Positions 11,956-57,250 of a DNA stretch of 64,000 nt are shown piece by piece. This DNA comes from an uncultured bacterium (lineage in GTDB: Bacteria > Krumholzibacteriota > Krumholzibacteriia > WVZY01 > JAKEHA01). The notes under the pieces were generated by a model, which had not been told where the DNA came from, did not search any database, and saw nothing but the letters and a program-made list of their open reading frames with translations. The stretch lies in contig CAZULB010000001.1 in NCBI GenBank assembly GCA_964621155.1, positions 10,402 to 74,401 of the forward strand, read 5' to 3'. Position numbers and translations under genes: made by a program. Every line of letters starts with the position of its first letter. Position 1 is the first letter of the stretch.

Positions 11956-11958
11956 GGT

Positions 11959-14325: not shown

Positions 14326-14425
14326 GGATGCGTCCTCCGAAGGACGAGAATGTGGAAAGCACCGGTCGGAACAGAGTGGGGTGTGCTCGCTATATTTTCG
14401 CACTCGGGCAGGCTATGCGCAATGA

Positions 14426-22501: not shown

Positions 22502-22502
22502 A

Positions 22503-23192: not shown

Positions 23193-23207
23193 GGTATTAC
23201 CTGCTTT

Positions 23208-25780: not shown

Positions 25781-28302
25781 ATCTGCGCCGACCTTTTTCG
25801 GAATCGGAGGCGCACAATCTCAGCCACCGTGTTCACCAGAAACGTCATGGCGAAGAGCAGGAGTGCCGCAAAGAACAGGGTGCGATAGTGGGTGCTGTTG
25901 CGGACAGCTTCCGGAAGCTCAACGGCGATATTCGCGGACAGTGTGCGGAAGCCATTGAACACATTCATCTGCATCACGGGCGTGTTGCCGGCCGCCATGA
26001 GCACGATCATGGTTTCACCCACAGCGCGCCCCAGGCCGATCATGATGGCGGAGAAGAGGCCGCTCATCGCCGTCGGTAGCACGATACGCACCGCCGTCTG
26101 CCAGGGTGTGGCGCCGGCGCCGAGAGACGCGGCCCGAAGGTGCGAGGGCACCGCGGAAAGCGCATCCTCGGCGATGGTGTAGATGATGGGAATCACCGCG
26201 AAGCCCATCACGAACCCGACCACCAGCGCGTTACGCTGCACGTAGGTGCCGAAGAATCCGCCGCGCGGGTCCGCGTGGACGAGGGTGAGCAGTCCCGCCA
26301 CCGCCAGGGTCAGGAGCAGCGTGGCAATGGCGGCAACTACAAAACGAATGCAGTCCATGCCCGCCACCCGCGAGCGCGACATCGTCATCGACGCACTGCG
26401 GAAACGCGCCTCGGTGAAGCGGCTCGTGCCGAAAATGACAACGGCGGCACACAACGGGATCAACAGCAACACCCATCCCCCGAAACCGCTGCCGCGCTGG
26501 CCATCGAGCCACGACATGATGTCGCCCGCGAAGAGCGTGCGCTCGGCCCACGGCCCCATCAGGGCGGCAAGACCCAGAGAGAATGGCAGGACCAGCAGAA
26601 TGATGACAAAGCGCAAGCGCGACAGGCGGCGTGTCGTGGACGCGGGCAGAAGCTGCCAGAGATACGCGCCGGCCAGCAGTGTCAGCGGCACGATGAGAAA
26701 TCCAACCATCACCGACGCGACGTGCCCCTGCACAAAGGGCGCGAACACGAGCGCGGCCAGGAATCCAAGCACCACGCTGGGCAGACTGGCCATGGACTCG
26801 ATCAGCGTTTTCAAGCGCGGGCGCAGCGACGGAGAAACAAACTCACTGGTGAAGATCGCGGCCAGCAGAGCCAGCGGCACACCAAAAAGCATGGCGTAGA
26901 AAGTGGCCTTGAGCGTACCGAACACGAGCGGCCACAGGCCGAGCTTGGATTCGAAGTCGTCCGTGCCGGCCGACGACTGCCACACGTGCGTGGGCGTCGC
27001 GTAACCTTCGTACCATACGGGGCTGAAGAGCGAACGCAGCGTGACTTCCGGATGCCCGGGTTCGAGGTCAAAGTGCTGGAGCGATGCGCCCGACGCGACC
27101 AGCAATCCGTCCGTCTTGGGCGCAAACGCGAGCGCGTCGACGCGCGCCTTTGGATCGAGCGTCATGTCGATCACGCGCTTGCCGCTGGTGCCCTGGAACA
27201 TGCGCACACGGCCATCGGCGTAGCCTGCCACGAAGAGTCTTGCGCGCGCTGAAGCCGCAAGCGCCGTCACCGCGGACCCGTCACCGCGGAACACGCGCGG
27301 GCTCACCAGCGTGGGCTTGCCGTTCGACTCCGCCTTGAACCACGCCGTCACGTTTCCCTTGTCGTCGCCGAAGAGCACGGTGGAACGGCCGATGAGCGTG
27401 CTGACCGCCGTGATCCGGGCGTTACCCGCCAGCATTCCGGTGGCGATTGCGGGCAGCGCATCGTTGCGCGCATCGAGCATGGTGGCATCGCCGTCGGCGC
27501 CAACGACGAGAATCGAGCTGCCTTCTTCGGTAACGATGACCCGCGCATCGGCGCCGGTTTCGGGCGTCGCCGTCGCGTGGCGGACGATGGCGGTCGCGGT
27601 TTCTCCGGTAAACTCATTTTCCTCGCGCTTGACGCGATCCAGGATGAGCGAATCCCCGGCGAGGGTCACCACCATGAAACCGTTATCGTCGGCGAGATGA
27701 TCGATGGCGCGCAGAGTGGCCGCGCCCACGGCGGGAATCGTCCCGGTACTGTCGAGCTGGGCGCGCTGGCTGCGCAGGGACCCCTCGCTCGTGCGTTCGA
27801 TCACCGCGTCACCGGCCGTTACACAGTCGCCCGCATGCGCCGGCGGTGTATTGGCGGCCACCTCCGCTTCCGCGGGATAGGAGGTGTCAAAGCCGACTCT
27901 GTAGAGCTGAATGCTGCCGTCAGTGCGGCCGAGTGCGAGTGAGCTGGACCTCACATCGAACGACGCGACTGCCAGCGAATCTGCGGAAACGAGGGTTCGC
28001 GTGAGGAGCACGTCACCATTGTCGAGTCGGAAGGAGCGAAATACGCCGTCCTTCCCCAGCTCCCAACCGCAGACCCGGTATTCATCCACTCCCGTGTACA
28101 ACGGTGACGGCGCAGCAGTGGCGCCGTGACCCGACGGCGCCACATCGCCGGAGCGAAACAGCGGATACACCACGCTGAGCAGAAACAAGAATACGCCGGT
28201 GACAGCGAGAATCGTCCCGATGCCCCCGACGGTAATACACATTGCGGCCAACTTGTCCGCGACGCGAACCGTCCAGCGTGTCTTGTGCGCTCGTTTTCTC
28301 AT
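25777..28302 (-). CDS. pstC: Phosphate ABC transporter permease PstC with ~400-aa N-terminal extracytoplasmic domain
   Basis: C-terminal six-TM permease core (GTLKATFYAMLFGVPLALLAAIFTSEF...). N-terminal TM, then a beta-rich region. Sits immediately after pstS. Confidence 0.75.
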   Translation of the reverse strand: MRKRAHKTRWTVRVADKLAAMCITVGGIGTILAVTGVFLFLLSVVYPLFRSGDVAPSGHGATAAPSPLYTGVDEYRVCGWELGKDGVFRSFRLDNGDVLLTRTLVSADSLAVASFDVRSSSLALGRTDGSIQLYRVGFDTSYPAEAEVAANTPPAHAGDCVTAGDAVIERTSEGSLRSQRAQLDSTGTIPAVGAATLRAIDHLADDNGFMVVTLAGDSLILDRVKREENEFTGETATAIVRHATATPETGADARVIVTEEGSSILVVGADGDATMLDARNDALPAIATGMLAGNARITAVSTLIGRSTVLFGDDKGNVTAWFKAESNGKPTLVSPRVFRGDGSAVTALAASARARLFVAGYADGRVRMFQGTSGKRVIDMTLDPKARVDALAFAPKTDGLLVASGASLQHFDLEPGHPEVTLRSLFSPVWYEGYATPTHVWQSSAGTDDFESKLGLWPLVFGTLKATFYAMLFGVPLALLAAIFTSEFVSPSLRPRLKTLIESMASLPSVVLGFLAALVFAPFVQGHVASVMVGFLIVPLTLLAGAYLWQLLPASTTRRLSRLRFVIILLVLPFSLGLAALMGPWAERTLFAGDIMSWLDGQRGSGFGGWVLLLIPLCAAVVIFGTSRFTEARFRSASMTMSRSRVAGMDCIRFVVAAIATLLLTLAVAGLLTLVHADPRGGFFGTYVQRNALVVGFVMGFAVIPIIYTIAEDALSAVPSHLRAASLGAGATPWQTAVRIVLPTAMSGLFSAIMIGLGRAVGETMIVLMAAGNTPVMQMNVFNGFRTLSANIAVELPEAVRNSTHYRTLFFAALLLFAMTFLVNTVAEIVRLRFRKRSAQI

Positions 28303-28378
28303 CTATATGTGTGCCGAAGCCGGCGAGCGACTTTCGTCGCCCGCCGGCCCGGTTGTAACCTTGCGTGGAAGCAACGCC

Positions 28379-29386
28379 TCAGTTGGCGGCCTTCATGGTC
28401 AGGCCGAGCTTGGCGAGCTCCTCGCTCGCGATCTTGGCGTTGACCGGGAAGTAACCGTCCTTGATCACGTCCGCCTGGCCGTCCCGGCTGAGCACATACA
28501 GCAGGAACTCGCGACGGAGCGGATCGAGCTGCGTACCCGGCTTGAGATTCACGTAGACGTACAAGAAGCGCGAGAGCGGGTACTTGCCCGTGTAGGCGAA
28601 TTCCGGTGTGGCCGAGATGGCCTCATCCGTCGCCGTGGCCTTGAGCGGTACTTCGCGCACATCGGCCGATTTGTAGCCGATGCCGCTGTAGCCAATGGCG
28701 TACTTGTCGCTCGAGACCGCCTGGACGACCGCCGCGCTACCCGGCTGCTCCTTCACTTCATCCTTGTAATCACCCTTGAAGAGCGCGTGCTCTTTGAAAT
28801 ACCCGTAGGTGCCCGAGGCCGAATTGCGGCCGTAGAGGCTGATGGGCTTGTCGGCCCATTCGCCGGTGAGACCAAGGTCGCCCCAGGTGCGAATGTCCGC
28901 GGCTGCGCCACCCTTGCGCGTCTTCGAGAAGATAGCGTCGATCTGCTGCATGGTCAGATTCTTGATCGGGTTGTCCTTGTTGACATAGATCGAAAGCATG
29001 TCGATCGACGTGCGGATCGCCGTCGGCTTGTACCCGTATTTCGCCTCGAACTGGTCGACCTCTTCATCCTTCATCATGCGGCTCATCGGACCAAAGGTCG
29101 CGGTGCCTTCGACGAGCGCCGGGGGAGCCGTCGAAGAACCCTTGCCTTCGATCTCGACCTGGACGTTCGGATACGCCTTGCGGAAATCTTCCGCCCACAG
29201 CGTCATCATGTTGTTCATGGTGTCCGAGCCCACACTCTTGATGTTGCCCGACACGCCCGAGACCGTCTTGTACGGCGCGAGCTTCGAATCCACTTTCACC
29301 GCCGTGTCCGCAACGGCCATGGCCACCATCGCCACCAGCGCGCCGGTGATCACCAGCGACACTTTACCAAAGGTTGAGCGAATCAT
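28379..29386 (-). CDS. pstS: Phosphate ABC transporter substrate-binding protein PstS
   Basis: PstS-family motifs (SGVSGNIKSVGSDTMNNMM...GTATFGPMSRMMKDEE). Start ATG 29386 with a GAGGAGG RBS. Confidence 0.8.
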   Translation of the reverse strand: MIRSTFGKVSLVITGALVAMVAMAVADTAVKVDSKLAPYKTVSGVSGNIKSVGSDTMNNMMTLWAEDFRKAYPNVQVEIEGKGSSTAPPALVEGTATFGPMSRMMKDEEVDQFEAKYGYKPTAIRTSIDMLSIYVNKDNPIKNLTMQQIDAIFSKTRKGGAAADIRTWGDLGLTGEWADKPISLYGRNSASGTYGYFKEHALFKGDYKDEVKEQPGSAAVVQAVSSDKYAIGYSGIGYKSADVREVPLKATATDEAISATPEFAYTGKYPLSRFLYVYVNLKPGTQLDPLRREFLLYVLSRDGQADVIKDGYFPVNAKIASEELAKLGLTMKAAN

Positions 29387-29468
29387 GTCTGCAGGTCCTC
29401 CTCGACAGGGCGCCGCAGGCGGCGCCGAAAATTGTTTGATCCTCAAGTCCGTGAGGAGATTAGCGAGG

Positions 29469-29566
29469 CCGGATAAAGATTGTATTAAGGAAAGCTAAAG
29501 GTTTGCGACCGCGGTGAGGATGCGGTGCAAACTGTTACAAGCTAACTAGTTACCGGATAAAGATTG
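29469..29566. promoter_or_regulatory. pstS upstream region with two copies of CCGGATAAAGATTG (29469..29482 and 29553..29566)
   Basis: Exact 14-bp direct repeat, 84 bp apart, upstream of pstS on the transcribed side. Candidate Pho-regulon operator, by inference only. Confidence 0.3.
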
Positions 29567-30859
29567 GCTGGCGCTGTCCCCGGAACGGGAGGAATCGGCC
29601 GGCTCGGGCGTCGGGGCCGCCCGCATGATCTGGGCACGCTGGATCAGCATCTGCGCCCGCTCGCCGTACTCTTCACTGGCCGCCGCAACGGTGAGATGGG
29701 TCATGGCCAGGTCGGGCTGGTTCAGCTCGAGCGCGCAGTAGCCGAGCATCATGTACGGGCGCGGCTTCTCAGGAGAGAGCTTCACGCACTCAGTGAATGC
29801 TTTGTATGCCTCTTCGAAATGTTTTTCCATGACCTGCAGGTCGCCGAGCAACGACCAGAGCTGAAAGGTCGGAGCCTCGCTGAGATTCTTGTTCAGGACC
29901 ACCAGCGCGCTGTCCGGCTGGAAGGAGGCCATGTAAGCAGACGCGATACGCTCCGCGTCGGTGCCCGAGGACGCGTCGCGCATGGCGACGGTGTAATGCT
30001 CCGCTGCCGCCGCCGGCGCATCGATGGCCGAGTAAAGATCACCCAGCTGCTTGTGCTCGGCTGCCGTGAGCGGACGTAGATACCCCACTACGGTGAGCGC
30101 GACCGCTGCCTGCTGGTAGTTCGACGTGCTGGCGTAGAACTGGAAGGCGAGATAATGGGCATCGGCGCTGCTGGGAAACTTCTCCAGCATGGCGTTGACC
30201 GCGCGCTGCCCACGATCCTTGTCCTCCGCCTGCAGACAACCGCTCACCAGTCCGCGGTACCATTCGAACTTCGGCGCACCGTGCTTGCCGGAAACCAGGT
30301 CTTCCAGCATCGGTAGCGCGCCGTTCGCGTCGCCGGACTGAAGCCGCGCGGCCGCTGCGTAGTAAAGAAGCTCGGGGCGCTTTTCGACGGAGAGATCGTA
30401 GCCCTTCTGCAGCGCTTCCGACGCGCGCTTGAAGTCTCCCAGGCCGTACGCGGTTTCACCCAGCGCGAGCCAGCCTTCGTCGTAGCGCGGCTCGAGCGCC
30501 ACAACTTTTTCGTACTCCTTGAGGGCCAGGTCGCGCTTGTCCACCTGCGCAAGCATGCCCGCGTACTGATAGTGCACGAGGAAGTGTTCGTCCTTCGGGT
30601 GGCCCTTGATGTATTTCGCGAGTGTTTCGACCGCTTTGTCGTTCTCGCCCTTTTCCATGTGCTGCTGTGCTTCGAACAGCGCCATGCGCGCATCGCGCGG
30701 GAGATCTTCCAGCGTCTCGATGGGCTTTTCAGCTTTGGCAGCGACCGCAGGAGCTTTGGCCGCAGCCGCCTTGTCGGCGTCTGCCGCCAGCGCGAGCGGT
30801 GATCGTGTTGCCAACGCGATGAGAAGCCCGAAAAGAATTCTGAGCCTGCGAAAAGTCAT
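29546..30859 (-). CDS. Secreted TPR-repeat protein (TtpD-like component of TonB2-type system)
   Basis: Signal peptide MTFRRLRILFGLLIALATRSPLALA (ATG 30859, 2 nt after the tonB stop). Multiple TPR-like helices. Positional equivalence to ttpD. Confidence 0.6.
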   Translation of the reverse strand: MTFRRLRILFGLLIALATRSPLALAADADKAAAAKAPAVAAKAEKPIETLEDLPRDARMALFEAQQHMEKGENDKAVETLAKYIKGHPKDEHFLVHYQYAGMLAQVDKRDLALKEYEKVVALEPRYDEGWLALGETAYGLGDFKRASEALQKGYDLSVEKRPELLYYAAAARLQSGDANGALPMLEDLVSGKHGAPKFEWYRGLVSGCLQAEDKDRGQRAVNAMLEKFPSSADAHYLAFQFYASTSNYQQAAVALTVVGYLRPLTAAEHKQLGDLYSAIDAPAAAAEHYTVAMRDASSGTDAERIASAYMASFQPDSALVVLNKNLSEAPTFQLWSLLGDLQVMEKHFEEAYKAFTECVKLSPEKPRPYMMLGYCALELNQPDLAMTHLTVAAASEEYGERAQMLIQRAQIMRAAPTPEPADSSRSGDSASQSLSGN

Positions 30860-30861
30860 GG

Positions 30862-31521
30862 CTATGTATTCAGTTTGAAGTGGAGTGCGGTAACCACCCA
30901 CGACGTCACTTTCTTGCCGCCGATGGTGCCGGCCTCGAAGCGCCACTTCGAAACCGCATTGATCACCGAGTCGTCAAAGGTCTCTTTGGGACCGCCCGTC
31001 ACACGCGATTCGACGATCTGCACCTCGCCGACCGAGCCGTCTTCACGAACCAGAATCTTGATCTGCACGGTGCCTTCGACACCCTGTTCGCGCGCCTTGA
31101 ACGGGTACACCGGCGGCATCTTCACGATGGCACGCGGCGCCTGGTCGAGCTCGTACTGATCGAAGACGAGCTTCCGGGTCACGCTGTTGTCGGTAGCGCC
31201 GCCGAGGTTGATCGACACCGCCGCGCCCGCGAGATTGCCCAGCGCCTGCAGCTCCGCGTTCATGTCGATGCTTTCCAGGAGGTCCTTGGTGACATCGGGC
31301 TGGGGTTGCTCCTGCGGCTTCTCCGGCGGTGCGACCTGCTGTTCTTCCTGCGGCTTCTCGTCGGCGAGATCCATCAACGCAACGCCGCTGCCCATCTGGA
31401 TGTCCTGCTTCACGGCCACTTTGTGGTGCGTGAGAAACAATCCGGTACCGAGCAATGCCACGTTGGCGCAGATCGCCACCGCGCCGGCCGGGAAAATCCA
31501 TTTCGGAAAGCGATCGAACAT
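30862..31521 (-). CDS. tonB: Energy transducer TonB
   Basis: N-terminal TM, Pro/Glu-rich spacer (PEKPQEQPQP), C-terminal TonB domain (PVYPFKAREQGVEGTVQIKILVREDGSV). Start at ATG 31521. Confidence 0.75.
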   Translation of the reverse strand: MFDRFPKWIFPAGAVAICANVALLGTGLFLTHHKVAVKQDIQMGSGVALMDLADEKPQEEQQVAPPEKPQEQPQPDVTKDLLESIDMNAELQALGNLAGAAVSINLGGATDNSVTRKLVFDQYELDQAPRAIVKMPPVYPFKAREQGVEGTVQIKILVREDGSVGEVQIVESRVTGGPKETFDDSVINAVSKWRFEAGTIGGKKVTSWVVTALHFKLNT

Positions 31522-31523
31522 TT

Positions 31524-31940
31524 CTACGATTCCCACTCGCGCTTGGCCGCCAGACTCACGTTCTTGGCACCCGCGAGCCGGCACTGGTCCATGACTTTGA
31601 CGATGTCGCCCGTCTTGCTGTCGCGATCCGCCACCACCACCACACCCGCTTCCGGATCACCGGCGAGCTCGCGCTCGACCAGACCGCGCACACGGCGCAC
31701 ATCGACACGCTTGCCCTCCATGTAGATGTCGCCGTTGGAGGAGACGCCGATCATGATGCTGCCGTGATCTTTCACTTCGGCCGTCGACGCCGTGGAGCGC
31801 TGCACGTCGATACCGGTTTCGCGCACGAACGATGTCGAGGCCACGAAGAAGATGAGCAGCACCATCATGACGTCGATCAGCGAGACCACGTTGATCTCGA
31901 CTTTTTCGTCGCCGCGAATTGTTTTGCGGATGTTGATCAT
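31524..31940 (-). CDS. exbD: Biopolymer transport protein ExbD/TolR
   Basis: INVVSLIDVMMVLLIFFV TM followed by a periplasmic domain. 138 aa. Confidence 0.85.
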   Translation of the reverse strand: MINIRKTIRGDEKVEINVVSLIDVMMVLLIFFVASTSFVRETGIDVQRSTASTAEVKDHGSIMIGVSSNGDIYMEGKRVDVRRVRGLVERELAGDPEAGVVVVADRDSKTGDIVKVMDQCRLAGAKNVSLAAKREWES

Positions 31941-31949
31941 ATCGGTTCC

Positions 31950-32543
31950 TCAGCGAACATGGTGCTCGAGCACCAGCATGGTTTGATCAAGATGATGCGA
32001 GAGACGGCTGGCGCGGCGCGACAGCGACGCGCTGAGCAGCAGGCCCGGGATTGCCACCAGCAGGCCCGCTTCGGTTGCCACCAGGGCCTCCGAAATTCCG
32101 CCCGCCAGTGGGCGCGCGTTACCCGTGCCGATGGCCGAGATCACGTTGAATGTCGCGATCATGCCGCTCACGGTGCCGAGCAGACCGAGCAGCGGCGCCA
32201 CCGATCCCAGCGCGGCAATCACCGACAGGTTGCGGTTGAGCTCGGGACGCATCTTGATGGCGCATTCCGAAAGTATGCGCTTGTCGAGCTCGGGCTCGCC
32301 GGTGCGCATCCGCGTGTAACTCTGGATCAAGCGTGCGCGCAGTCCGTGGCCAAAATGGTTCACCGGATTTCCCTGCACGGCGTGCACGGCGTCCTGGATG
32401 CCCAGATCTTTGGATGTGAGCCGGTGGAACGTAATGAGGCGTTCCGCGATCAGTGTCCACATCAGGAATGAGACCGCGGAAAGCGGAATCATCACCCAGC
32501 CGCCGGAGCGAGCGAGATCAAGCAGTGACTGCCAGAGATCCAC
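31950..32543 (-). CDS. exbB: MotA/TolQ/ExbB proton-channel protein ExbB
   Basis: Three TMs; conserved C-terminal GTVSGMIATFNVISAIGTGNARPLAGGISEALVATEAGLLVAIP. Confidence 0.8.
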   Translation of the reverse strand: MDLWQSLLDLARSGGWVMIPLSAVSFLMWTLIAERLITFHRLTSKDLGIQDAVHAVQGNPVNHFGHGLRARLIQSYTRMRTGEPELDKRILSECAIKMRPELNRNLSVIAALGSVAPLLGLLGTVSGMIATFNVISAIGTGNARPLAGGISEALVATEAGLLVAIPGLLLSASLSRRASRLSHHLDQTMLVLEHHVR

Positions 32544-33933
32544 GACGCTGCTCCTTCTGAATGATGTTGGTGAGACCCACGGCCTTCTCCTCCATATCGC
32601 TCACCACCGCGTTGGCGCGGCGCGAGAGGAACACGTGCAGGAGCATGGTGGGTACCGCGATACACAGGCCCCACTTGGTGGCGATCAGCGCTTCCGAAAT
32701 ACCGCCCGACATGAGCTTGGGGTCGCCGGTGCCGTACACGGTGATCACGTTGAAGGTCCGGATCATACCCGTCACCGTGCCCAGCAGACCGAGTAACGGT
32801 GAGATGGCACCCAGGGCCGCCATGATCGAAAGGCCTTTTTCGAGGCGCGGGATCTCGCTCAGGATGGATTCCTGCAGCACGTTCTCGAGCGTTTCGCGGT
32901 CCTCGTTGCGCGCATTGATGCCGTCGCGCAGCACGTTCACCACCGGCCAGTTGTGATTCTTGTGTTCCTGCATGATCGTGTCGACGGCGTCCCAATCGCC
33001 CTTGGCCGCCAGATCATTGACCCGGCCCATGAGCTTGTCGGTGTCACCGTGCACGCGCTTCAGGTACACGACTTTGTAGAGCGTGAAGAGGATCACGGCA
33101 ACGGCCACGATCAGGATGGGCCACATGATGTTGCCACCCAGCTTGAATTCCTCGAGCATGCTCAGGTGGTGCGTCAGCTGCGACAGCGACTCGCCGGCGG
33201 CGATGTCGATGGGAACCACTTCGCCCTTGCCCGCGAAATAGTTGCGCATCGAGCGCGCCATGCTGCCCGAAGGCAGCACGGAGAGCGCGACAAGATTCTT
33301 CGATTCGGTGGTGTAGCTCAGGAAGCCGACTTCCTTGCCGTCGCGGTAAAGTGCGGTAAAACGGCCCAGGAGCAGAATGTCACCGTCGTGATCGTTTCCG
33401 TCACGGCCGACGTACTTGCCCTTCTGCAGTGCCACCTGGGACGAACGCTTCATTTCTTCAAAGAGCACCGCCGTCATGCCGCCGATATCATGGATGTCGG
33501 GGAAATGGCCGGTATCCAGAAGCGGTGAAATCTTTGCAAGCGGCGTCTCGTCGAGCGCCGTGCGCGGCGAGGCCTGCAGCATCGCTTCCACGTCGCGCGC
33601 GGCCATGCGCACGTTGCCGGACAGCTCGTGGAAGTCGGACTCCTTGGTGGACCACTTTTCGTTGAGCGCATCGTGGCGCGCCTGCCTGTCGGCTTTCTGC
33701 TTACGCAGCGCCGCAATGTCGTTCTCGAGACTCTTTTCGCGCGCCTCGAGCTCGTTCACCTGCAGTTCCAGCGCCGCCTTGTCGGCAAAGATCTTCTGTT
33801 CGACTTCCTTCGCTTTCGCTTCCGCCGCCAGCTTGTCGGCTTCAGCCTTCTTGACGGCTTCGCGCACGTCCTGCGCTGCGACAGGCGCGGCCAGCGCACT
33901 CAGACAGAGGATGGCAATCAATAGCTTCTTCAT
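32518..33933 (-). CDS. Large MotA/TolQ/ExbB-family protein with N-terminal signal peptide and coiled-coil periplasmic domain (TtpC-like)
   Basis: Signal peptide MKKLLIAILCLSALAAPVAA. Long coiled-coil (KEVEQKIFADKAALELQVNELEAREKSLENDIAALRK). C-terminal ExbB channel core (GLLGTVTGMIRTFNVITVYGTGDPKLMSGGISEALIATKWGL). Confidence 0.7.
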   Translation of the reverse strand: MKKLLIAILCLSALAAPVAAQDVREAVKKAEADKLAAEAKAKEVEQKIFADKAALELQVNELEAREKSLENDIAALRKQKADRQARHDALNEKWSTKESDFHELSGNVRMAARDVEAMLQASPRTALDETPLAKISPLLDTGHFPDIHDIGGMTAVLFEEMKRSSQVALQKGKYVGRDGNDHDGDILLLGRFTALYRDGKEVGFLSYTTESKNLVALSVLPSGSMARSMRNYFAGKGEVVPIDIAAGESLSQLTHHLSMLEEFKLGGNIMWPILIVAVAVILFTLYKVVYLKRVHGDTDKLMGRVNDLAAKGDWDAVDTIMQEHKNHNWPVVNVLRDGINARNEDRETLENVLQESILSEIPRLEKGLSIMAALGAISPLLGLLGTVTGMIRTFNVITVYGTGDPKLMSGGISEALIATKWGLCIAVPTMLLHVFLSRRANAVVSDMEEKAVGLTNIIQKEQRRGSLAVTA

Positions 33934-34694
33934 GACTGGATCCTTCCGAGCGGGAGCGTGATCACTTTGGTCGAACGCAGGCGCATGACCATTTCACGCG
34001 CATCCGCGATCGAGTTCACGTATTTCTTGTCCATCTCGACCCACTGTCGCGAGGCGCGGTCGAACTCACCTACGCGCTTGCCGTCGGGCGAGCGCCAGTA
34101 GACCGACACGCGGCCAATCCGGATCACATCGGCGGAAATCTCTTCGCTTCCAACCTTGATGCGTTCCTGGGAGACATCGACAGTGTTGCCATAGTTGGCT
34201 TCCACCTGCAGCGCTTCCAATACGCGGCGCAGTTTCTCGGCGCCCGTCACTTCGGGCTTGGCGATGGCTTCTCGCACCGAGGCCAGACGGTCGCTGCGTT
34301 CCTTCACCAGGAAGGGAATGTCCTGCTTGACCCACTCGTCGAGGCGGTTGACCACCACATTGAGCGAATCCTCGAGGTTGTCCTTGAGCCGGGCGGACTC
34401 AACCATGCGGCGCTCGAGCTCGGCGATACCCGCGTCGAGCGAAGCCACTTCCCTCGCTTCGAAGGCTTTGGTTTTCTCGAGATAATCGACTTGCGCCCTG
34501 GCGGCGCGGTAGCGGGCGGCGTAATCGTTCTTCTCTTCCGCCCACGCTTCCTGCTTCTTCTGCGTTTGCTGCTGGGTCTCGACGGTCCTGGCGACCGTCT
34601 CGCTCAGCGACTTGTTTTCCTGGGCGCCCGCGAGCAACGCTGCACCGAGCGAGAAGCCCGTGAGGATGGTCGCGGTGCAAATCAAACGTTTCAT
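33930..34694 (-). CDS. DUF3450-like periplasmic coiled-coil protein (TtpB-like)
   Basis: Signal peptide, then a Gln/Glu-rich coiled-coil. 254 aa. First gene of the TonB2-type cluster; overlaps the next gene by 4 nt. Confidence 0.55.
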   Translation of the reverse strand: MKRLICTATILTGFSLGAALLAGAQENKSLSETVARTVETQQQTQKKQEAWAEEKNDYAARYRAARAQVDYLEKTKAFEAREVASLDAGIAELERRMVESARLKDNLEDSLNVVVNRLDEWVKQDIPFLVKERSDRLASVREAIAKPEVTGAEKLRRVLEALQVEANYGNTVDVSQERIKVGSEEISADVIRIGRVSVYWRSPDGKRVGEFDRASRQWVEMDKKYVNSIADAREMVMRLRSTKVITLPLGRIQS

Positions 34695-34814
34695 TTGTGT
34701 CCTTTCGAGGGGTGCGGATCGAGCGCGACGTAGCAGTACAAACGCGGAGGAGCGCGCAATGACCGAACCCTGGTCGCGAAGCAGGATAGAGATGCTGTGT
34801 AAATCGCGTATGAA

Positions 34815-34835
34815 TCACGGGTGAATCACCCGTGA
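34815..34835. promoter_or_regulatory. 21-bp palindrome TCACGGGTGA-A-TCACCCGTGA in the divergent promoter between the TonB2-type operon and the TonB-dependent receptor
   Basis: Perfect 10-bp inverted arms with a 1-nt spacer. Embedded in iterated GAATCAC/GAATC motifs (34811..34845) with another copy at ~34903. Confidence 0.4.
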
Positions 34836-34991
34836 ATCTGGCTGTCGCGCCAGTGTGCTCCGATCGGTCCGCGCGCGTTTCTATATTTCACTTCGGCTTT
34901 ATTCCAGATTCACACGACTTCCCTAGTATCGCCCCCGTTGATCCGCGCCCGTAGGTGTCGGGAAGCGGACACAGAGACACATTCACAGGAG

Positions 34992-37751
34992 ATGACAATG
35001 ACGGGGACCGCGAAAGGTGTATTCGCTCTCTCCTTCATGCTCGCACTCTGGGCCGCTGGCGCAGCGATGGCGGGAACCATTGAAGGAACCATCAAGGATG
35101 CGAAGACGGGTGATCCGTTGGTCGGAGCCACGGTGCGTATCGTGAACAAGGATTTGGGAGCCGCAAGCAACATCGACGGCAGGTACCTGATCGCCAACGT
35201 GCCGCCGGGCATCTACTCGCTGCGCGTTTCGTACGCGAACTACGCCCAGAAAGTGTTGCCGGGAGTGGCCGTGACTGGAAACGACAGCACCACCATGAAC
35301 ATCACGATGGAGCCTGCTGGCGGCACGGGAGACCTGCAACGCATCGATGACACCTATGTGGTCGAAGATCGTATCCGCAACAACATCGTGGGTGAACTCG
35401 CCGCGCGCCAGAAGTCAGCCATCATCGGCGACGGCATGACCCAGGAACAGATTCGACTTTCTCCCGCAAGCGACGCCGGCGATGCGCTCAAGCGCGTCAC
35501 CGGACTCTCCGTTGTGGACGACAAGTTCGTGTTCGTGCGCGGCGTCACCGACCGTTACAACTCGACGACGCTCAACGGCGCGACCGTCACGGGCACGGAC
35601 ACGGACAGCGACAAGAAGAGCTTCTCGTTCGATCTGATTCCGTCATCGCTGATCGCGAGCACCATCGTCGCCAAAACGGCCACCCCCGACCTGCCTGGTG
35701 ACTTTTCGGGCGGACTCGTGCAGGTCAACACGCTGGACTTTCCATCGCAGTTCATGCTCACCGCCGGCATGGAAGCCGCCAGTGACAACGTGAGCTCGAA
35801 CAAGGATATCCGCAAAGCGCCCGGCGGTGGATCGGACTGGAAGGCCAAGGATGACGGAAGCCGCGCGCTTCCGCCGGGCGAGACCGGCGTCGACCTTGCC
35901 AAAGCGCTTCCCAACACCTGGGCCACATCCGGTGACGAGTCCAACCTGAACAGCAACTACGGCCTCGCGGTCGGGAACAAGTTCAATGTCGGCGGCGGCC
36001 AACTCGGCTTCATTGCGTCGGGCACGTACAAGAACAGCTTCAAGATCGAAGACTACCACCAGGCGCCGACGCCGCCCGGGCAGGGGCCCATTTTCGAATT
36101 CGATGGCAAGCGCTACAAGGAAAAGTACCTGTGGGGCGGGCTCGCGAACGTGAGCTGGCACATAACCGACAATCATCGCATCGCATTCGAGAACAACTAC
36201 ACGCGCACCGCGGACGACAAGGTCACCGAGTCCGAAGGCACGGCGGAAAGCCAGGTACCCACGCGCGCCCAGTCGATCACATGGGCCCAGCGCGATCTCT
36301 ATCTCGGCCAGCTCAAAGGCCAGCACACGCTGCCTTTTGCGCACGGCCTCGACATCAAGTGGCGCCTTACGACGTCGGCGTCATCGGCGCAGGAGCCGGA
36401 CCGCAAGTTTGCGGCCTACGGAAAGACCGCGCGCGGTGTGTACTTGCTCGGCGAAAACTATCGCACGTGGTCCGAACTGAGTGAAGACACACACGGCGGA
36501 GCGCTGGACGTCCAATATCCGGTCGGAGACGGCTTCGTCAAGGCGGGCTACGCGCAAAATCACCGCGCTCGTGACTACCACATCGATGCTTTCGCGGCGA
36601 GTACTCAGGGCATGGACAGAAAGTATCAAAACACGCTGCCGATCCTGCCCATTGACGAGATATTTGCGCCGGAAAACTTCGGCAAGGACACTGACGGCAA
36701 GCAGATGTTCGACTTCATCCCGTACACCGTTCTGTCCGGCACCTACGACGGTGAACAGGATCTCAGCGCTTACTACGGCATGTACGATTCGCCCTTTAAA
36801 CTGCGCGGACGCGGTTTTCGTTTCGCGGGTGGCCTGCGCGTCGAGGACTCGGACCAGACGGTGAACGGCCCGAAAGCAGCCGACGATCCGACCCTCATCT
36901 CATCGCGCAGCCAGACCACCGACGCGCTCCCATCCGCAAATCTGACCTGTGAAGTGACCAGGACGTCCAACATCCGGCTCGGATATTACAAATCGGTCAA
37001 TCGACCGGAGATTCGCGAGCAGGCCAACGTTGCCTACCTGGACTTCGACCGCAACCAGACCGTGGTGGGAAATTCAGATCTCGAGCGCGCCACCATTCAG
37101 AATTATGACGTGCGCGCCGAGTGGTTTCCGAAACCCGGTGAAGTAATCGCGGTGAGCTACTTCTACAAGGATCTGACCGACGCCATCGAAGAACAGCTGC
37201 TGCCGTCGCCGGACCGCTACATCCGCACCTGGTTCAATTCACCAAGCGGGAAGAACTTTGGCTACGAGATTGAGATGCGCAAGGGGCTTGGCTTCCTGAC
37301 CCGAGGGCTGGAGAACCTGGTGGTGCAGGCCAATTACACACACGTCGATTCGGAAGTCGAATACACCGAATCTTATAACGATTCGTTGACCAACACGCCG
37401 GTCTACATATCCAGGACACGACCGCTGCAGGGCCAGGCCCCGTACACGGTCAACGCCGGCCTGACCTATTCGATTCCGGAAATCGGACTCTCGACGAGTC
37501 TCCTGTACAACCGCTTCGGCCGCCGCCTCGATGCGGTGGGCGATTCGCGCGATGAGGATACCTACGAAGAGCCGCGCAACCTGCTCGACTTTGCGCTCAC
37601 CGAGCAGTTCACGAGTTGGATTCGTCTGAAGTTCACGATGAAGGATCTGCTGGCGGACGACAAAGTGCTGACGTACGGCAACAGCGGATCCACGTGGGAG
37701 CGCGTTAACGTGGGGACGACGTACGCACTTTCTCTCTCTTTCAGTCTCTAA
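34992..37751 (+). CDS. TonB-dependent receptor with N-terminal carboxypeptidase-regulatory-like domain
   Basis: AGGAG RBS. Signal peptide. CarbopepD_reg-like (GTIEGTIKDAKTGDPLVGATVRIVN...DGRYLIANVPPGIYSLRVS). Plug (DALKRVTGLSVVDDKFVFVRGVTDRYNSTTLNG). Long barrel. Confidence 0.8.
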   Translation: MTMTGTAKGVFALSFMLALWAAGAAMAGTIEGTIKDAKTGDPLVGATVRIVNKDLGAASNIDGRYLIANVPPGIYSLRVSYANYAQKVLPGVAVTGNDSTTMNITMEPAGGTGDLQRIDDTYVVEDRIRNNIVGELAARQKSAIIGDGMTQEQIRLSPASDAGDALKRVTGLSVVDDKFVFVRGVTDRYNSTTLNGATVTGTDTDSDKKSFSFDLIPSSLIASTIVAKTATPDLPGDFSGGLVQVNTLDFPSQFMLTAGMEAASDNVSSNKDIRKAPGGGSDWKAKDDGSRALPPGETGVDLAKALPNTWATSGDESNLNSNYGLAVGNKFNVGGGQLGFIASGTYKNSFKIEDYHQAPTPPGQGPIFEFDGKRYKEKYLWGGLANVSWHITDNHRIAFENNYTRTADDKVTESEGTAESQVPTRAQSITWAQRDLYLGQLKGQHTLPFAHGLDIKWRLTTSASSAQEPDRKFAAYGKTARGVYLLGENYRTWSELSEDTHGGALDVQYPVGDGFVKAGYAQNHRARDYHIDAFAASTQGMDRKYQNTLPILPIDEIFAPENFGKDTDGKQMFDFIPYTVLSGTYDGEQDLSAYYGMYDSPFKLRGRGFRFAGGLRVEDSDQTVNGPKAADDPTLISSRSQTTDALPSANLTCEVTRTSNIRLGYYKSVNRPEIREQANVAYLDFDRNQTVVGNSDLERATIQNYDVRAEWFPKPGEVIAVSYFYKDLTDAIEEQLLPSPDRYIRTWFNSPSGKNFGYEIEMRKGLGFLTRGLENLVVQANYTHVDSEVEYTESYNDSLTNTPVYISRTRPLQGQAPYTVNAGLTYSIPEIGLSTSLLYNRFGRRLDAVGDSRDEDTYEEPRNLLDFALTEQFTSWIRLKFTMKDLLADDKVLTYGNSGSTWERVNVGTTYALSLSFSL

Positions 37752-37845
37752 ATGGGTGACACCATGACTCGACCAAAGTCGATTGAGAGGGAGAGAGACT
37801 GCGTATCTAGCGCCTCGGATTGACGCCAGAGCAAAAAGGAAATTG

Positions 37846-37875
37846 CCATCCCCGGAGGGCTAGCTCCGGGGATGG
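37846..37875. other. Strong GC hairpin (12-bp stem CCATCCCCGGAG / CTCCGGGGATGG, 6-nt loop)
   Basis: Perfect inverted repeat in the intergenic region. The U-tract lies on the minus-strand side (CAATTTCCTTTTTGC). Orientation and function are ambiguous. Confidence 0.4.
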
Positions 37876-38023
37876 CGGACCCTGAAAGGAGGAGCCCGGC
37901 AAAGCGGATTCGCACGAAAACCCCTCTCTTATTGGGTGAGAGGAAAGAATAAGGGATTGCAAGAGGTTGAAACAACCAGCAACGAAAGCAACAGCTACCA
38001 ACGTCTTTCTGGAGGAACTAAAC

Positions 38024-39748
38024 ATGAAGCGTTTCATACTTGGCCTGGCCTTCGCCGCCATCGCGGCCAACGCTGCCACGGCAAATGCGGTGAAGCCCCA
38101 GGTCGTGATCGGCCCGGGCACGGGCTCCGCGCCGCGCACACCGTACTGCCAGCTCTTCGACCGTACGCTGGACTCCGACACCACGTATGTTCTGACGGGC
38201 CTTTATTACGTCGAACCCAATCACAGCCTGACCATTCAGCCGGGCACCGTGATCCTGGGCCACAAGGCCACCGGCGGTACGCTCATTATTACCAAGGGCG
38301 CGCAGATTTTCGCCCAGGGTACCGTGCAGCAGCCCATCGTGTTCACGAGCAACCAGGCCATTGGAGCGCGCAACCCCGGTGACTGGGGCGGCATCATCGT
38401 CCTCGGCGATGCTCCCACCAACAAGGTGAACCCGGTCATCGAAGGCGGTCTCATCGGCGGTTCGTGCGGCGGCGGCGTGACCACGTACGGCGGCGCCAAC
38501 GCCAACGACAACAGCGGCGTGCTCAGCTACATCCGCATCGAGTTCGCGGGCTATCGCTTCCAGCTCAACAACGAAGTCAACGGTCTCACCATGGGCGGCG
38601 TCGGCGCGGGCACGCAGATCGACCACATCCAGGTGAGTTATTCGAATGACGACGCCTACGAGTGGTTTGGCGGCACCGTGAACTGCAACTACCTCGCGGC
38701 GCTGGGCACCACCGACGATGAGTTTGACACTGACTTCGGTTACTCAGGTCACGTGCAGTTCGGTTTCGGCCTCCGCGACCCCGACTTCTGGGATCCGACC
38801 GGTCAGTCGAACGGCTTCGAGTCCGACAACGACGGCTCGTCGACTTCGACCGCCGACCCGCACACACACCCGATCTTCTCAAACATCACGCTGGTCGGTC
38901 CCGAGCGCGTCGACGCGGAAGTTCCCTTCCCGCTTGCCTCGACCATCCAGTTCGGCGCCCTCCTGCGCCGCTCGACGCAGACTTGCATCTACAACTCCGC
39001 AATCATGGGCTACGCCTGGGGTCTCGCGGTTCGTGATGCAACCACGCAGGGTTTTGCGACCGGTGGACAGCTCCAGATCCGCAACACCAACTGGCAGGCC
39101 ACGCTGCTTCCGGGCGCTTCGGCATCGATTCACGAACATTCGACGTGGGCCGGCATCGAAGCCTGGTACGGCACAGCGGGCTTCAACAACGTGAACAACC
39201 CCGCTGTTACGCGCCTTCCCAACACGATCAAGCTCAACAACCTGAGCAACCTCAATGCTCCGGATCCGCGTCCGCAGACGACCTCCGAGCTGGTCGGCAC
39301 CGCCGACTTTTCAAACGGCAACCTCGCTGGCTTCGCAGTCACGAGCTATCGCGGTGCGTTCCCGCCGGTCAACGTGGCCAGCCCGAACACCCTGTGGACG
39401 GCTTTCTGGACCAACTGGGATCCGCAGAATGTCGACTACTCGAACGGCGTCCCGGGCCCGATCACGGCCGTGGGTGGCCCGAAGATGGAGTCCAGACTCG
39501 GACAGAATTATCCCAACCCGTTCAATCCGCAGACGTCGATCGATTACACGGTCGGCCAGGAAGGCAAAGTCACGCTGAGCGTGTATGACGCTTCCGGCGC
39601 GAAGGTCAGGACGCTGGTGAGCGAAGTGAAGAAGGCCGGTTCCTACACGGCCAGCTTCAACGCTGACGGCATGGCATCGGGCGTGTACTTCTACCGCCTG
39701 GTTGCGCCTGGCATCAACGAGTTCAAGAAGATGGTGCTCCTGAAGTAA
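38024..39748 (+). CDS. Secreted protein with T9SS-type C-terminal sorting domain
   Basis: GGAGGA RBS. Signal peptide MKRFILGLAFAAIAANAATANA. C-terminus NYPNPFNPQTSIDYTV...LSVYDASGAKVRTLV...GVYFYRLVAPGINEFKKMVLLK. Confidence 0.65.
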   Translation: MKRFILGLAFAAIAANAATANAVKPQVVIGPGTGSAPRTPYCQLFDRTLDSDTTYVLTGLYYVEPNHSLTIQPGTVILGHKATGGTLIITKGAQIFAQGTVQQPIVFTSNQAIGARNPGDWGGIIVLGDAPTNKVNPVIEGGLIGGSCGGGVTTYGGANANDNSGVLSYIRIEFAGYRFQLNNEVNGLTMGGVGAGTQIDHIQVSYSNDDAYEWFGGTVNCNYLAALGTTDDEFDTDFGYSGHVQFGFGLRDPDFWDPTGQSNGFESDNDGSSTSTADPHTHPIFSNITLVGPERVDAEVPFPLASTIQFGALLRRSTQTCIYNSAIMGYAWGLAVRDATTQGFATGGQLQIRNTNWQATLLPGASASIHEHSTWAGIEAWYGTAGFNNVNNPAVTRLPNTIKLNNLSNLNAPDPRPQTTSELVGTADFSNGNLAGFAVTSYRGAFPPVNVASPNTLWTAFWTNWDPQNVDYSNGVPGPITAVGGPKMESRLGQNYPNPFNPQTSIDYTVGQEGKVTLSVYDASGAKVRTLVSEVKKAGSYTASFNADGMASGVYFYRLVAPGINEFKKMVLLK

Positions 39749-39806
39749 CACCGTCAGGAGTTACCACGCGACCCTCCCGGAGCGAATGGAGGGTCGCAAA
39801 ACTCGC

Positions 39807-39842
39807 GCGCCCCGGTTCCTGCGAACCGGGGCGCTTTTTTTT
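39807..39842 (+). terminator. Rho-independent terminator (also serves the convergent minus-strand gene)
   Basis: GCGCCCCGGTTC-CTGC-GAACCGGGGCGC followed by T8. A second hairpin GCGACCCTCC...GGAGGGTCGC lies at 39768..39797. Confidence 0.65.
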
Positions 39843-39878
39843 GCCATCTGCAGCGGGACGAGCAGTTTTCCGCGCGGG

Positions 39879-40127
39879 CTATCCGAAGAGAAGGTCGATG
39901 ATGGAACCGAGGTGGCGCTTTCCTTCCAGCACTTCCGGATTGTAGATCTCGGTGTAACCGCAGTTGGTGCACGACGCCGTGATGAACTGGTTGTGCTCGA
40001 CATCGAGAATCTTGGAGAGCCCGGTGCCGGCCGCCGAGATGCGTTTGACCTTCGCACCGCGGGTCTGGCACTTGGTGCACACGAATCTGGTTTCAAGCTC
40101 GGTTGCAAATGACATGGGTTCCTCCAT
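39879..40127 (-). CDS. Small zinc-ribbon protein
   Basis: Two CxxC pairs (CTKCQT...CTNCGY). 82 aa. Confidence 0.45.
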   Translation of the reverse strand: MEEPMSFATELETRFVCTKCQTRGAKVKRISAAGTGLSKILDVEHNQFITASCTNCGYTEIYNPEVLEGKRHLGSIIDLLFG

Positions 40128-40215
40128 TATATGTGGGACGCCGCATGCAATTGCGGCGGCGAATGGAGCGGGTACACGGCAGGGCTTGCCGTATTCGAGG
40201 GTAATTTTTTCCCGG

Positions 40216-41391
40216 TCAGCGGACGAGGAAATCGGTAGAGACGCGGTTGATCCAGGACACCACCTGGCCGCGGCTGGCGCGCGCGCCGATGAACAGCGCT
40301 TCGAGCAGCGCGGGATGTGAGGCGACGTATTTCTGCGCGCGATACGAACGGCGGATCAGTCCCCCGATCGCCACATCGCAGCGGCGGTCGTAATCTTCCA
40401 GGATATCCATTGCACCGTGCGGCGCATCGAGCGCTTGATGCACGACCTCGGCCGCGATGGTGGCGGTGGCCACGGCGTGGTGAATTCCCTCCCCCGTCAT
40501 CGAATCAATGAAACGGCCGGCGTCCCCCACGAACAGCACGCCCTTGGCCGCACGAGCGCCGGATGAGGGGGTTGCGTATGGAAGCTGCCAGGTGGCGGAA
40601 TCATGGAGGCGCGCATCGCTCGCGAGCCTCGGTCTCACATCGGGGCTGTCGAGGAAGCGCTGCAACAACTGCTGCAAGGTGGCGCCACTGCGCTTGAATC
40701 GATCCGTGCGCATGATCACGCCCACATTGGCGCGGTCCGGACCGAGCGGGAAGACCCACGCATAGCCGGGTGCGAGCGCTGCCTGGAAATGAAACTCGGC
40801 CGCTAAAGCACCGGTATCGATGCCCTCGATATAGGCGCGAATCGCCACCCCGCGATCGGCTTCCGCGGCACGCGCGGGCGCGAGCGCGCGGCCCAACACT
40901 GACGTCGCGCCGTCGGCTGCGATCACATGACGCGCGCCTATCACCCGCCCTGACCCATTGGACTCTACTTCCACTCCGCGAACGACACCGCTTTCGATGA
41001 CGGGCGCGCGCACCTGGGCGCGCTCAAAGCGCGCGCCGGATGCAATAGCGTGTCCCCGCAAGAGCGCGTCGAACTGGATTCTCGGCGCGATCAGAAACTG
41101 CGTGTCATCCCGACGTGGATCAAAGGAAACCGTGAAGTCCCTACCCCGGGCCGAAACCAGCCGGACCGCGCGCACGCGCGTGAAGCCCGCGCCGGCCAGC
41201 TCGTCGCGCATTCCAAGGTCGTGGAGTATGCCCACGGTGCCCGGGGGAATGCCGTCACCGCAAGGCTTGTCCCGCGGAAACTCGGCGCGGTCGACAAGGA
41301 GCACGTCGCGCCCGCGCCGCGCGAGCGACGCCGCAGCCGTGCTTCCCGCAGGGCCGGCGCCAACCACAATCACATCATGGAACGCGGACAT
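40216..41391 (-). CDS. FAD-dependent oxidoreductase, geranylgeranyl reductase family
   Basis: N-terminal dinucleotide-binding motif VIVVGAGPAGSTAA...LLVDR and a GDAAG-like motif (FVGDAGRFID). Confidence 0.75.
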   Translation of the reverse strand: MSAFHDVIVVGAGPAGSTAAASLARRGRDVLLVDRAEFPRDKPCGDGIPPGTVGILHDLGMRDELAGAGFTRVRAVRLVSARGRDFTVSFDPRRDDTQFLIAPRIQFDALLRGHAIASGARFERAQVRAPVIESGVVRGVEVESNGSGRVIGARHVIAADGATSVLGRALAPARAAEADRGVAIRAYIEGIDTGALAAEFHFQAALAPGYAWVFPLGPDRANVGVIMRTDRFKRSGATLQQLLQRFLDSPDVRPRLASDARLHDSATWQLPYATPSSGARAAKGVLFVGDAGRFIDSMTGEGIHHAVATATIAAEVVHQALDAPHGAMDILEDYDRRCDVAIGGLIRRSYRAQKYVASHPALLEALFIGARASRGQVVSWINRVSTDFLVR

Positions 41392-57239: not shown

Positions 57240-57250
57240 TTCACTACTCC

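Follow-up and report, generated by a model that had tools for sequence, protein, structure and literature searches.

What does a six-gene TonB energiser of the Vibrio TonB2 (TtpBCD) type do when it is encoded far from the vibrios, beside phosphate genes? The question is raised by a 64,000-nucleotide stretch of contig CAZULB010000001.1 (assembly GCA_964621155.1, positions 10,402 to 74,401 of the forward strand; the whole stretch is called the window, and coordinates count from its first letter) from an uncultured, Krumholzibacteria-like bacterium, in which such a cluster diverges from a TonB-dependent receptor (TBDR) gene. The reading favoured here, at a probability of roughly 0.6, is a PhoB-controlled import module in which the receptor, a surface beta-helix protein (here BHel) and a dedicated TtpBCD-type energiser would act together and feed phosphate to the PstSCAB transporter. 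The energiser genes, in order of transcription, are as follows (ORF, open reading frame; TPR, tetratricopeptide repeat).

33930-34694, minus strand: ttpB-like gene, 254 aa, Pfam DUF3450 (PF11932) E 1.9e-61 over 234 of 254 aa
32518-33933, minus strand: ttpC-like gene, 471 aa, MotA_ExbB E 1.2e-31 at residues 332-448
31950-32543, minus strand: exbB, 197 aa, short ExbB/TolQ-type proton-channel subunit, MotA_ExbB E 4.1e-29
31524-31940, minus strand: exbD, 138 aa, Pfam ExbD E 1.3e-27
30862-31521 (ORF 30862-31584), minus strand: tonB, 219 aa, TonB_C E 3.2e-17
29546-30859 (ORF 29546-30946), minus strand: ttpD-like gene for a secreted TPR protein, 437 aa, matching many TPR Pfam families

These six consecutive minus-strand ORFs (29546-34694) had been proposed as a TonB2 cluster in an earlier, sequence-only reading, and all six belong to the expected Pfam families, with matches in each of the DUF3450, MotA_ExbB, ExbD, TonB_C and TPR hidden Markov model (HMM) searches. 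Start-codon context makes translation from ATG 31521 (tonB) and ATG 30859 (ttpD) likely, and exbB starts with GTG preceded by AAGGAG. TonB has an N-terminal transmembrane (TM) anchor, a Pro/Glu/Lys/Gln-rich spacer and the TonB_C domain, and exceeds the cut-off of NCBIfam TIGR01352 (53.4 bits; cut-off 27.1), while ExbB and ExbD score sub-threshold only against the TolQ/ExbB and TolR/ExbD equivalogs. Hydropathy plots place signal-peptide-like hydrophobic N-termini on TtpB, TtpC and TtpD, three TM segments in ExbB, one in ExbD (containing Asp23) and one in TonB; the core of TtpC is of the 3-TM ExbB/TolQ type, and its N-terminus gives a weak DUF3450 match (Pfam E 1.7e-4). The ‘2-4 nt’ coupling that had been described for the whole operon holds for three of the five junctions (ttpB/ttpC, 4-nt overlap; exbD/tonB and tonB/ttpD, 2-nt gaps) and fails for ttpC/exbB (26-nt overlap, 32518-32543) and exbB/exbD (9-nt gap). 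Because the exact 26-nt overlap is kept in the gene calls of five of five relatives with 53-69% TtpC identity, translational coupling of the two ExbB paralogues, TtpC and ExbB, is suggested.

Gene content, order and strand are those of the V. vulnificus tonB2 operon, ttpB2-ttpC2-exbB2-exbD2-tonB2-ttpD2, which encodes a 255-aa DUF3450 protein (TtpB2) and a 425-aa TPR protein (TtpD2) and all six products of which are required for siderophore uptake (PMC6957404); the published order thus agrees with the one proposed from the letters. V. anguillarum and V. cholerae have the TonB2 system as well. The same six genes are found in V. campbellii (L007 of the numbered related loci) and Salinivibrio (L008) replicons, taken as Vibrionaceae references from a plasmid/chromid collection, and the proteins are of similar size (254/471/197/138/219/437 aa from TtpB to TtpD in the window; 255/455/184/134/206/390 aa in V. 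campbellii). By blastp, TtpB is 26-30% identical to the two references (E 1.6e-17 and 5.4e-23) and full-length TtpC 27-28% (E 8e-40 and 4e-45), while ExbB (30%, E 1e-23), ExbD (39% to ExbD2, E 1e-34) and TonB (26%, E 5.5e-9) match V. campbellii, so that significant pairwise identities between this Krumholzibacteria-like host and the gammaproteobacterial vibrios are just 26-39%. TtpB is collinear end to end with both Vibrionaceae proteins, with shared motifs kept and 22 invariant columns, which together with the Pfam match places the first gene in the DUF3450/TtpB family as predicted. The predicted TtpD identity of the last gene is upheld at profile level and not by pairwise BLAST, which is not significant against Vibrio TtpD (E 0.04): when 57 TtpD sequences of related loci are built into a profile, it aligns with a profile of six last-gene TPR proteins of Vibrio type (five gammaproteobacterial, Vibrio and Salinivibrio among them, and a sixth from an Acidobacteriota metagenome-assembled genome, MAG) over 361 collinear columns (hhalign probability 99.9, E 1.7e-35; reversed-sequence control E 0.14), with the caveat that TPR proteins align easily. 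TtpD is weakly conserved even between vibrios (23-55%; PMC6957404). Since every family-defining feature open to sequence testing is present, assignment to the TonB2/TtpBCD type is supported, and the energiser is one of known type in a new lineage.

The TtpB model (AlphaFold2, pLDDT 75) shows a signal peptide, a ~100-residue helix and a small beta domain. A DUF3450-like periplasmic domain occupies ~residues 22-262 of TtpC, ahead of the ExbB core, and the leading ~260 columns of the TtpC-family profile align with the TtpB family (hhalign probability 98.9, E 1.3e-17, 229 columns). On the strength of this profile match, TtpC is best described as an ExbB core with a periplasmic DUF3450-type domain fused in front of it, and TtpB as the same domain on its own. 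A 2025 survey lists DUF3450 as an unexplained N-terminal appendage of ExbB-like subunits (PMC12505986).

According to one published account, ttpB, ttpC and ttpD are restricted to vibrios and certain marine bacteria (PMC10734418). A scan with the TtpB alignment, at one genome per species, found at least 549 genome stretches encoding TtpB, among them stretches from Krumholzibacteriia, Latescibacteria, Eisenbacteria, Fibrobacteraceae, Thermodesulfobacteriota, SAR324, Acidobacteriota and Gammaproteobacteria, and among 1.84 billion cluster representatives a profile picked out 1,799 TtpB-family clusters (1,194 at E <=1e-10); judged by these matches, the distribution of TtpBCD is far wider than that description. 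When HMMs built from the window and its first relatives were run on the ORFs of 88 loci, the order TtpB-TtpC-ExbB-ExbD-TonB-TtpD was recovered in nearly every locus of sufficient length, the exceptions being L073 and L081, with a TtpD-like gene upstream of ttpB; the architecture is therefore conserved in other genomes of several phyla, as had been expected. In the window, TtpC is 100% identical to one NCBI protein, its nearest named relatives being from Candidatus Krumholzibacteria and Latescibacteria MAGs, and type IX secretion system (T9SS)-type sorting domains in neighbouring genes fit the Fibrobacteres-Chlorobi-Bacteroidetes (FCB) group. In L077, an uncultured Gammaproteobacteria MAG, the TtpBCD-type cluster (7908-15546) has two ExbD genes, and a second TtpB-TtpC pair directly after the first cluster makes this a tandemly duplicated energiser.

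Across a spacer of about 300 bp, as first described, and of 303 bp when the TBDR start is set at ATG 34998, the cluster faces the receptor gene and, beyond it, that of BHel.

34998-37751 (ORF 34938-37751), plus strand: TBDR gene, with N-terminal CarboxypepD_reg domain, Plug and barrel
38021-39748, plus strand: BHel gene, 575 aa, secreted right-handed beta-helix protein with T9SS type-A C-terminal sorting domain

The CarboxypepD_reg and Plug matches (Pfam) confirm a CarbopepD-type receptor, probably translated from ATG 34998 behind the Shine-Dalgarno sequence AGGAG (34987-34991); its best-matching NCBIfam model is TIGR01782, at 226 bits under a cut-off of 310. BHel matches Por_Secre_tail (E 8.5e-9) and TIGR04183, its AlphaFold2 model (pLDDT 85) is a right-handed beta-helix with an immunoglobulin-like C-terminal domain, and its homologues carry precomputed PF28492. 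It has an ordinary signal peptide (MKRFILGLAFAAIAANAATANA) without a lipobox Cys and so lacks the mark of an outer-facing lipoprotein. Aligned homologues share invariant acidic clusters (D210 D211 E214, D232 D233 D236 D238, D253 D258 and E267 D269 D271), which may make up an active site or a face that binds metals or cations. The TBDR and BHel genes are 269 bp apart, and the gap contains a perfect GC-rich hairpin with a 13-bp stem (37845-37876) and no plus-strand T-run after it, which may be an mRNA-stabilising or attenuating structure; Rfam gave no RNA family in 28000-40500, a range that covers it.

The pair recurs with the cluster, adjoining it in L001, L003, L004, L005 and most FCB-type loci, divergently or co-directionally. 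In the plasmid/chromid collection, all 22 records with a TBDR homologue (E <=1e-20) have a BHel homologue beside it, 15 of them being Pseudoalteromonas or Alteromonas replicons, and in all 15 of these the pair has a TtpC homologue no more than a few kb away. A Hymenobacter TBDR matches that of the window with E 8.5e-104, and the Hymenobacter BHel homologue is 43% identical. BHel is the probable surface partner of the TBDR. Kinship with the Vibrio TonB3 receptor was considered and rejected, since no Vibrio protein matches the window TBDR at E <=1e-20 in the same collection, which does include Vibrio records with TtpC homologues.

Directly downstream of ttpD and on the same strand lies a set of phosphate genes, pstSCAB-phoBRU (20028-29386).

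28379-29386, minus strand: pstS, above NCBIfam cut-off
25777-28302, minus strand: pstC-like gene, 841 aa
24116-25780, minus strand: pstA, 554 aa, above NCBIfam cut-off
ORF 23208-24491, minus strand: pstB, above NCBIfam cut-off
22503-23192, minus strand: phoB, best family PhoB TIGR02154
20678-22501, minus strand: phoR
within ORF 20028-21140, minus strand: phoU, above NCBIfam cut-off

The same set adjoins the cluster in L001, L003, L004, L011, L012, L015 and L038. The PstC-like protein (841 aa) and PstA (554 aa) are far longer than usual, with weak WD40/beta-propeller matches at ~residues 257-407 of the former, before the permease core; long forms (842-859 aa) are also found in L001, L003 and L004.

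The promoters of ttpB, the receptor gene and pstS share one type of direct repeat.

34795-34838, minus strand: ttpB-side array of four 11-bp direct repeats, GATTCACGGGT GATTCACCCGT GATTCATACGC GATTTACACAG, putative PHO boxes
34783-34788, minus strand: ttpB -10-like hexamer TATCCT, 6 nt past the last repeat (TAATCT in most relatives)
34885-34917, plus strand: TBDR-side array of three 11-bp direct repeats, ATTTCACTTCG GCTTTATTCCA GATTCACACGA, putative PHO boxes
34924-34929, plus strand: TBDR -10-like hexamer TAGTAT, 6 nt past the last repeat
29469-29501, minus strand: pstS array of three 11-bp direct repeats, CCTTTAGCTTT CCTTAATACAA TCTTTATCCGG, followed by TAATCT, putative PHO boxes

The strict search pattern TTYAY-N6-TTYAY-N6-TTYAY (core TTYAY, 11-bp period) has four matches in the 64-kb window against 0.07 expected. 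Three of these are in the divergent spacer, two overlapping matches making up the four-unit ttpB-side array and one the three-unit TBDR-side array, and when related loci totalling 1.13 Mb were searched, each of the 43 strict matches fell either in the receptor/ttpB spacer or before pstS. The ttpB-side array keeps its place and direction in 10 related loci. Alignment of 11 loci gives consensus units GATTCAC, GATTCAC, sGTTTAT and yATTTAT on the ttpB side, with the hexamer fixed 6-7 nt on, and TTTCAC, CTTTAC and GTTCAC on the TBDR side, where the hexamer in relatives is TAGTAT, TAGACT, TACAAT or similar. Scored on the TTYAY core, the pstS arrays of the window and eight relatives reach 13-15 of 15, and a score >=13 occurs at just nine positions of the window (128 kb, counting both strands); the distance from pstS array to start codon is 82-86 nt in the window and seven relatives (the 68 nt of L013, whose contig ends before pstS, run to the end of the stretch and are not comparable). 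PHO boxes in the literature consist of 11-nt units, arranged head to tail, to which PhoB/PhoP binds; the core is GTTCACC in Streptomyces (PMC4415409). In the 11 loci, at least two head-to-tail 11-bp units stand at the -35 position with a -10-like hexamer after them, the arrangement of PhoB-type promoters, and the same is found with the same repeat type at pstS in the window. As far as sequence can tell, the ttpB, TBDR and pstS promoters have a PhoB-activated layout, and it is on this that control by PhoR-PhoB is proposed.

A weight matrix built from the pstS repeats alone was discarded in favour of the TTYAY core, being over-fitted to CCTTTA and not ranking the divergent spacer, and a generic promoter/terminator scan gave counts at chance level. 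About 14 nt past the ttpB -10-like hexamer, a 9-nt motif at 34761-34769 (GACCGAACC on the plus strand, GGTTCGGTC in ttpB orientation) is nearly invariant in 11 related loci and may be a leader or start-site element. A 14-nt sequence, CAATCTTTATCCGG, occurs twice on the minus strand, in the last ttpD codons (29553-29566) and in the third unit of the pstS array (29469-29482). The fourth strict match in the window (46247-46273, minus strand) lies upstream of a minus-strand gene for a porin-like protein (45156-46208; 350 aa, signal peptide, C-terminal end ...TFQGKF), which matches no family of Pfam or NCBIfam, also with thresholds relaxed, has no BLAST similarity to an annotated Hymenobacter porin, and may be a phosphate-starvation porin; its homologue adjoins a DUF885 gene in L001.

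Pairs of a TBDR and a pectin-lyase-fold surface protein are known from phosphate-starved bacteria. In Flavobacterium johnsoniae, Fjoh_0545, a TonB-dependent transporter with Plug, CarbopepD_reg_2 and OMP_b-brl_3, and Fjoh_0546, a pectin-lyase-fold lipoprotein, are listed in a ‘PhoBR operon’ with an OprP porin and are induced by low phosphate (log2 8.0 and 9.9; PMC8115612). Price et al. describe Fjoh_0546 as a relative of Bacteroides BT4056 and, more remotely, of Caulobacter ElpS, with receptor/partner adjacency in 621 genera (bioRxiv 10.1101/2023.03.17.533168); ElpS is produced on phosphate starvation, and elpS adjoins the TBDR gene cc0171, upstream of gsp genes (PMC2996285). The window shares the pairing of a TBDR with a pectin-lyase-fold surface protein, the Pfam make-up of its receptor is that of Fjoh_0545, and both this pair and the Fjoh pair are found within a phoBR locus or close to one, accompanied by a porin or porin-like gene. 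In the alphaproteobacterium Indioceanicola the order is BHel-like, TBDR, gspN, gspD, gspE, gspF, gspG, which is the published Caulobacter elpS-cc0171-gsp arrangement (PMC2996285), and the BHel-like protein is 38% identical to that of the window (E 2e-50). Because BHel matches this protein in elpS-type synteny, the window pair probably belongs to the family of CC0171/ElpS, Fjoh_0545/0546 and BT4055/4056. A linked TtpBCD-type energiser was not found described for the Caulobacter, Flavobacterium or Bacteroides pairs in the literature searched.

Such a linkage is found in Alteromonadales, where Alteromonas and Pseudoalteromonas carry the same eight-gene module of receptor, BHel homologue and ttpB to ttpD. 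In A. macleodii pBGP9 it directly follows phoB-phoR-pstS, all on one strand: phoB-phoR-pstS-(2-oxoglutarate oxygenase)-BHel-like-TBDR-ttpB-ttpC-exbB-exbD-tonB-ttpD, the beta-helix repeat protein being annotated as hypothetical. The module is co-directional in these genera, whereas the window receptor is divergent. The receptors beside the Alteromonas and Pseudoalteromonas clusters are homologous to that of the window over ~890 aa (E 3.5e-77 and 3.4e-72; 28% identity over 888 aligned positions for the former, from A. macleodii), alignment beginning at ~residue 100-116 of the window TBDR and leaving the N-terminal CarboxypepD_reg uncovered. The Alteromonas-type BHel is triplicated (~1360 aa); window BHel matches each of the three internal repeats of the A. 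macleodii protein (E down to 8e-40), and its T9SS C-terminal domain has no match there. The PstS proteins of A. macleodii and the window are 48% identical. GTAAY-N5-TGTCAC, a gammaproteobacterial Pho-box-like pattern, has four matches in the Alteromonas sequence against 0.74 expected, with sites upstream of phoB (by 64 nt), the BHel-like gene (by 76 nt) and ttpB (by 92 nt); literature searches found no phosphate-limitation expression data for the Alteromonas cluster. A TonB energiser that depends on phosphate limitation is documented in P. aeruginosa, where expression of the exbB2D2-tonB4 operon requires phosphate limitation, PhoB and sigma-VreI (PMC4971064). That set, within phdA-pdtB-exbB2D2-tonB4 of the PUMA3 region, differs from the window cluster in consisting of ExbB-ExbD-TonB without TtpB, TtpC or TtpD, in being under extracytoplasmic function (ECF) sigma control and in having the PdtA/PdtB secretion system as partner.

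Taken as a working system, the favoured module would be switched on at phosphate scarcity by the neighbouring PhoR-PhoB, PhoB binding to the repeat arrays and inducing the genes behind them. ExbB and ExbD would form the proton-driven motor of the inner membrane, with TonB crossing the periplasm to pull the receptor plug. TtpC would act as a second ExbB paralogue, with its first 260 residues folded into a helical periplasmic domain of DUF3450 type, and TtpD as a periplasmic TPR scaffold; we infer that TtpB and the TtpC N-domains come together by way of their long helices to build a periplasmic superstructure, organised by TtpD and seated on a mixed TtpC/ExbB-ExbD stator. The TBDR would work with T9SS-exported BHel to import a phosphorus-bearing substrate, and PstSCAB would then move the released phosphate over the inner membrane.

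Several observations weigh against this module. Its response regulator scores 258 bits against PhoB TIGR02154, below the cut-off of 296, and the repeats could bind another OmpR-family regulator. Eisenbacteria-type loci have no strict arrays, though the receptor pair is present, and among the loci surveyed pst-pho adjacency is limited to the nearest clade. The tie of BHel to ElpS, Fjoh_0546 and BT4056 is indirect, running through the Indioceanicola homologue and published descriptions; unlike those lipoprotein partners, BHel carries a T9SS sorting domain and no lipobox, although such a domain is another route to the same surface location as a lipid anchor. The Caulobacter receptor cc0171 has been reported as constitutive and not phosphate-regulated (PMC2996285). 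Fold searches with TtpB and BHel gave no functional clue, and a second, shorter TBDR is encoded in the window (1205-3223, plus strand), so that the energiser may serve other receptors too.

This last point leads to the alternative that survives best, though it is unlikely: a general-purpose TonB energiser for many receptors, whose position beside the receptor and pst genes would have no specific meaning. Beyond the additional TBDR at 1205-3223, it is favoured by the many loci with the six-gene cluster and neither receptor pair nor pst (L006 and most Fibrobacteraceae- and Thermodesulfobacteriota-labelled loci), and by the Teredinibacter TonB2, which serves two unrelated substrates (PMC10734418). 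Set against this, the receptor/BHel/TtpBCD linkage recurs in distant phyla (FCB group and Alteromonadales), and both divergent promoters share their repeat type with pstS. The two views are compatible in part, in that an energiser can be both Pho-induced and promiscuous.

A glycan-utilisation locus, in which BHel would cleave polysaccharides at the surface as a lyase or hydrolase and the receptor would import oligosaccharides for carbon, is distinctly unlikely. The receptor does resemble the TIGR01782 ‘Xanthomonas/Caulobacter’ class, which has been associated with the uptake of carbohydrates, BHel comes closest in fold to tailspikes and to lyases of polysaccharide lyase families PL6 and PL3 (no match with E <1e-3), and the window has another beta-helix protein gene at 41475-43088. 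The conserved neighbourhood, however, holds no genes for glycoside hydrolases, sugar transporters or sugar regulators, the characterised relatives of BHel are phosphate-starvation proteins, and the PHO-box-like arrays and pst/pho adjacency point elsewhere.

It is very unlikely that the cluster is an iron energiser that, as in Vibrio TonB2, would be Fur-repressed and serve ferric-siderophore receptors. Homology and gene order are shared with a system in which siderophore uptake needs all six genes (PMC6957404), but the partner receptor here is not of siderophore type: its best NCBIfam model is TIGR01782, and its closest relatives are BHel-paired receptors and not characterised siderophore receptors. 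The spacer carries OmpR/PhoB-type direct repeats and the neighbours are pst and pho genes, whereas no Fur box was found in the spacer, the best match (11 of 19) being at background, which is a weak negative as the E. coli consensus used may not be that of the host. Even within the family, the Teredinibacter TonB2 is not clearly iron-regulated and serves carbohydrate use (PMC10734418). The genomic context thus suggests phosphate rather than Vibrio-like iron regulation.

Tol-Pal-like envelope maintenance by TolQ/TolR/TolA and a CpoB-like TPR protein is hardly credible, since the best sub-threshold NCBIfam matches of ExbB and ExbD to TolQ and TolR and the weak YbgF/CpoB resemblance of the TPR protein are outweighed by the lack of a beta-propeller TolB or OmpA-like Pal in or beside the cluster, a TonB_C domain above the TIGR01352 cut-off with a Pro-rich spacer, content and order orthologous to a system experimentally shown to energise receptors (PMC6957404), and receptor linkage across phyla.

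Elsewhere in the window, on the minus strand, three very large proteins (11959-14403, 50392-54189 and 54576-57674) have FlgD_ig-like C-terminal domains that may be sorting tags, and an ECF-type sigma factor gene stands beside a gene for a CHAT-TPR protein (60099-63628).

For the family as a whole, a broader proposal is offered tentatively, at somewhat less than an even chance: that TtpBCD energisers are ancient and widespread, that serving an ElpS-type pair under PhoB is a recurrent and possibly their primary job, conserved from FCB candidate phyla to Alteromonadales, and that their extra parts (TtpB, the TtpC N-domain and TtpD) are adapted to such a receptor or its cargo. A conserved partnership between TtpBCD and phosphate-starvation receptor pairs was not found described in the literature searched. 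The paralogy of TtpB and the TtpC extension suggests what these parts may do, namely build a periplasmic assembly of one repeated domain. If the link is true, phosphate-starvation receptor/beta-helix pairs, relatives of which rank among the most strongly phosphate-starvation-induced proteins of Flavobacterium (PMC8115612), gain a candidate energiser, and the idea is testable, as the same module with Pho-box-like sites is present in cultured Alteromonas and the Pseudoalteromonas carriers are also cultured.

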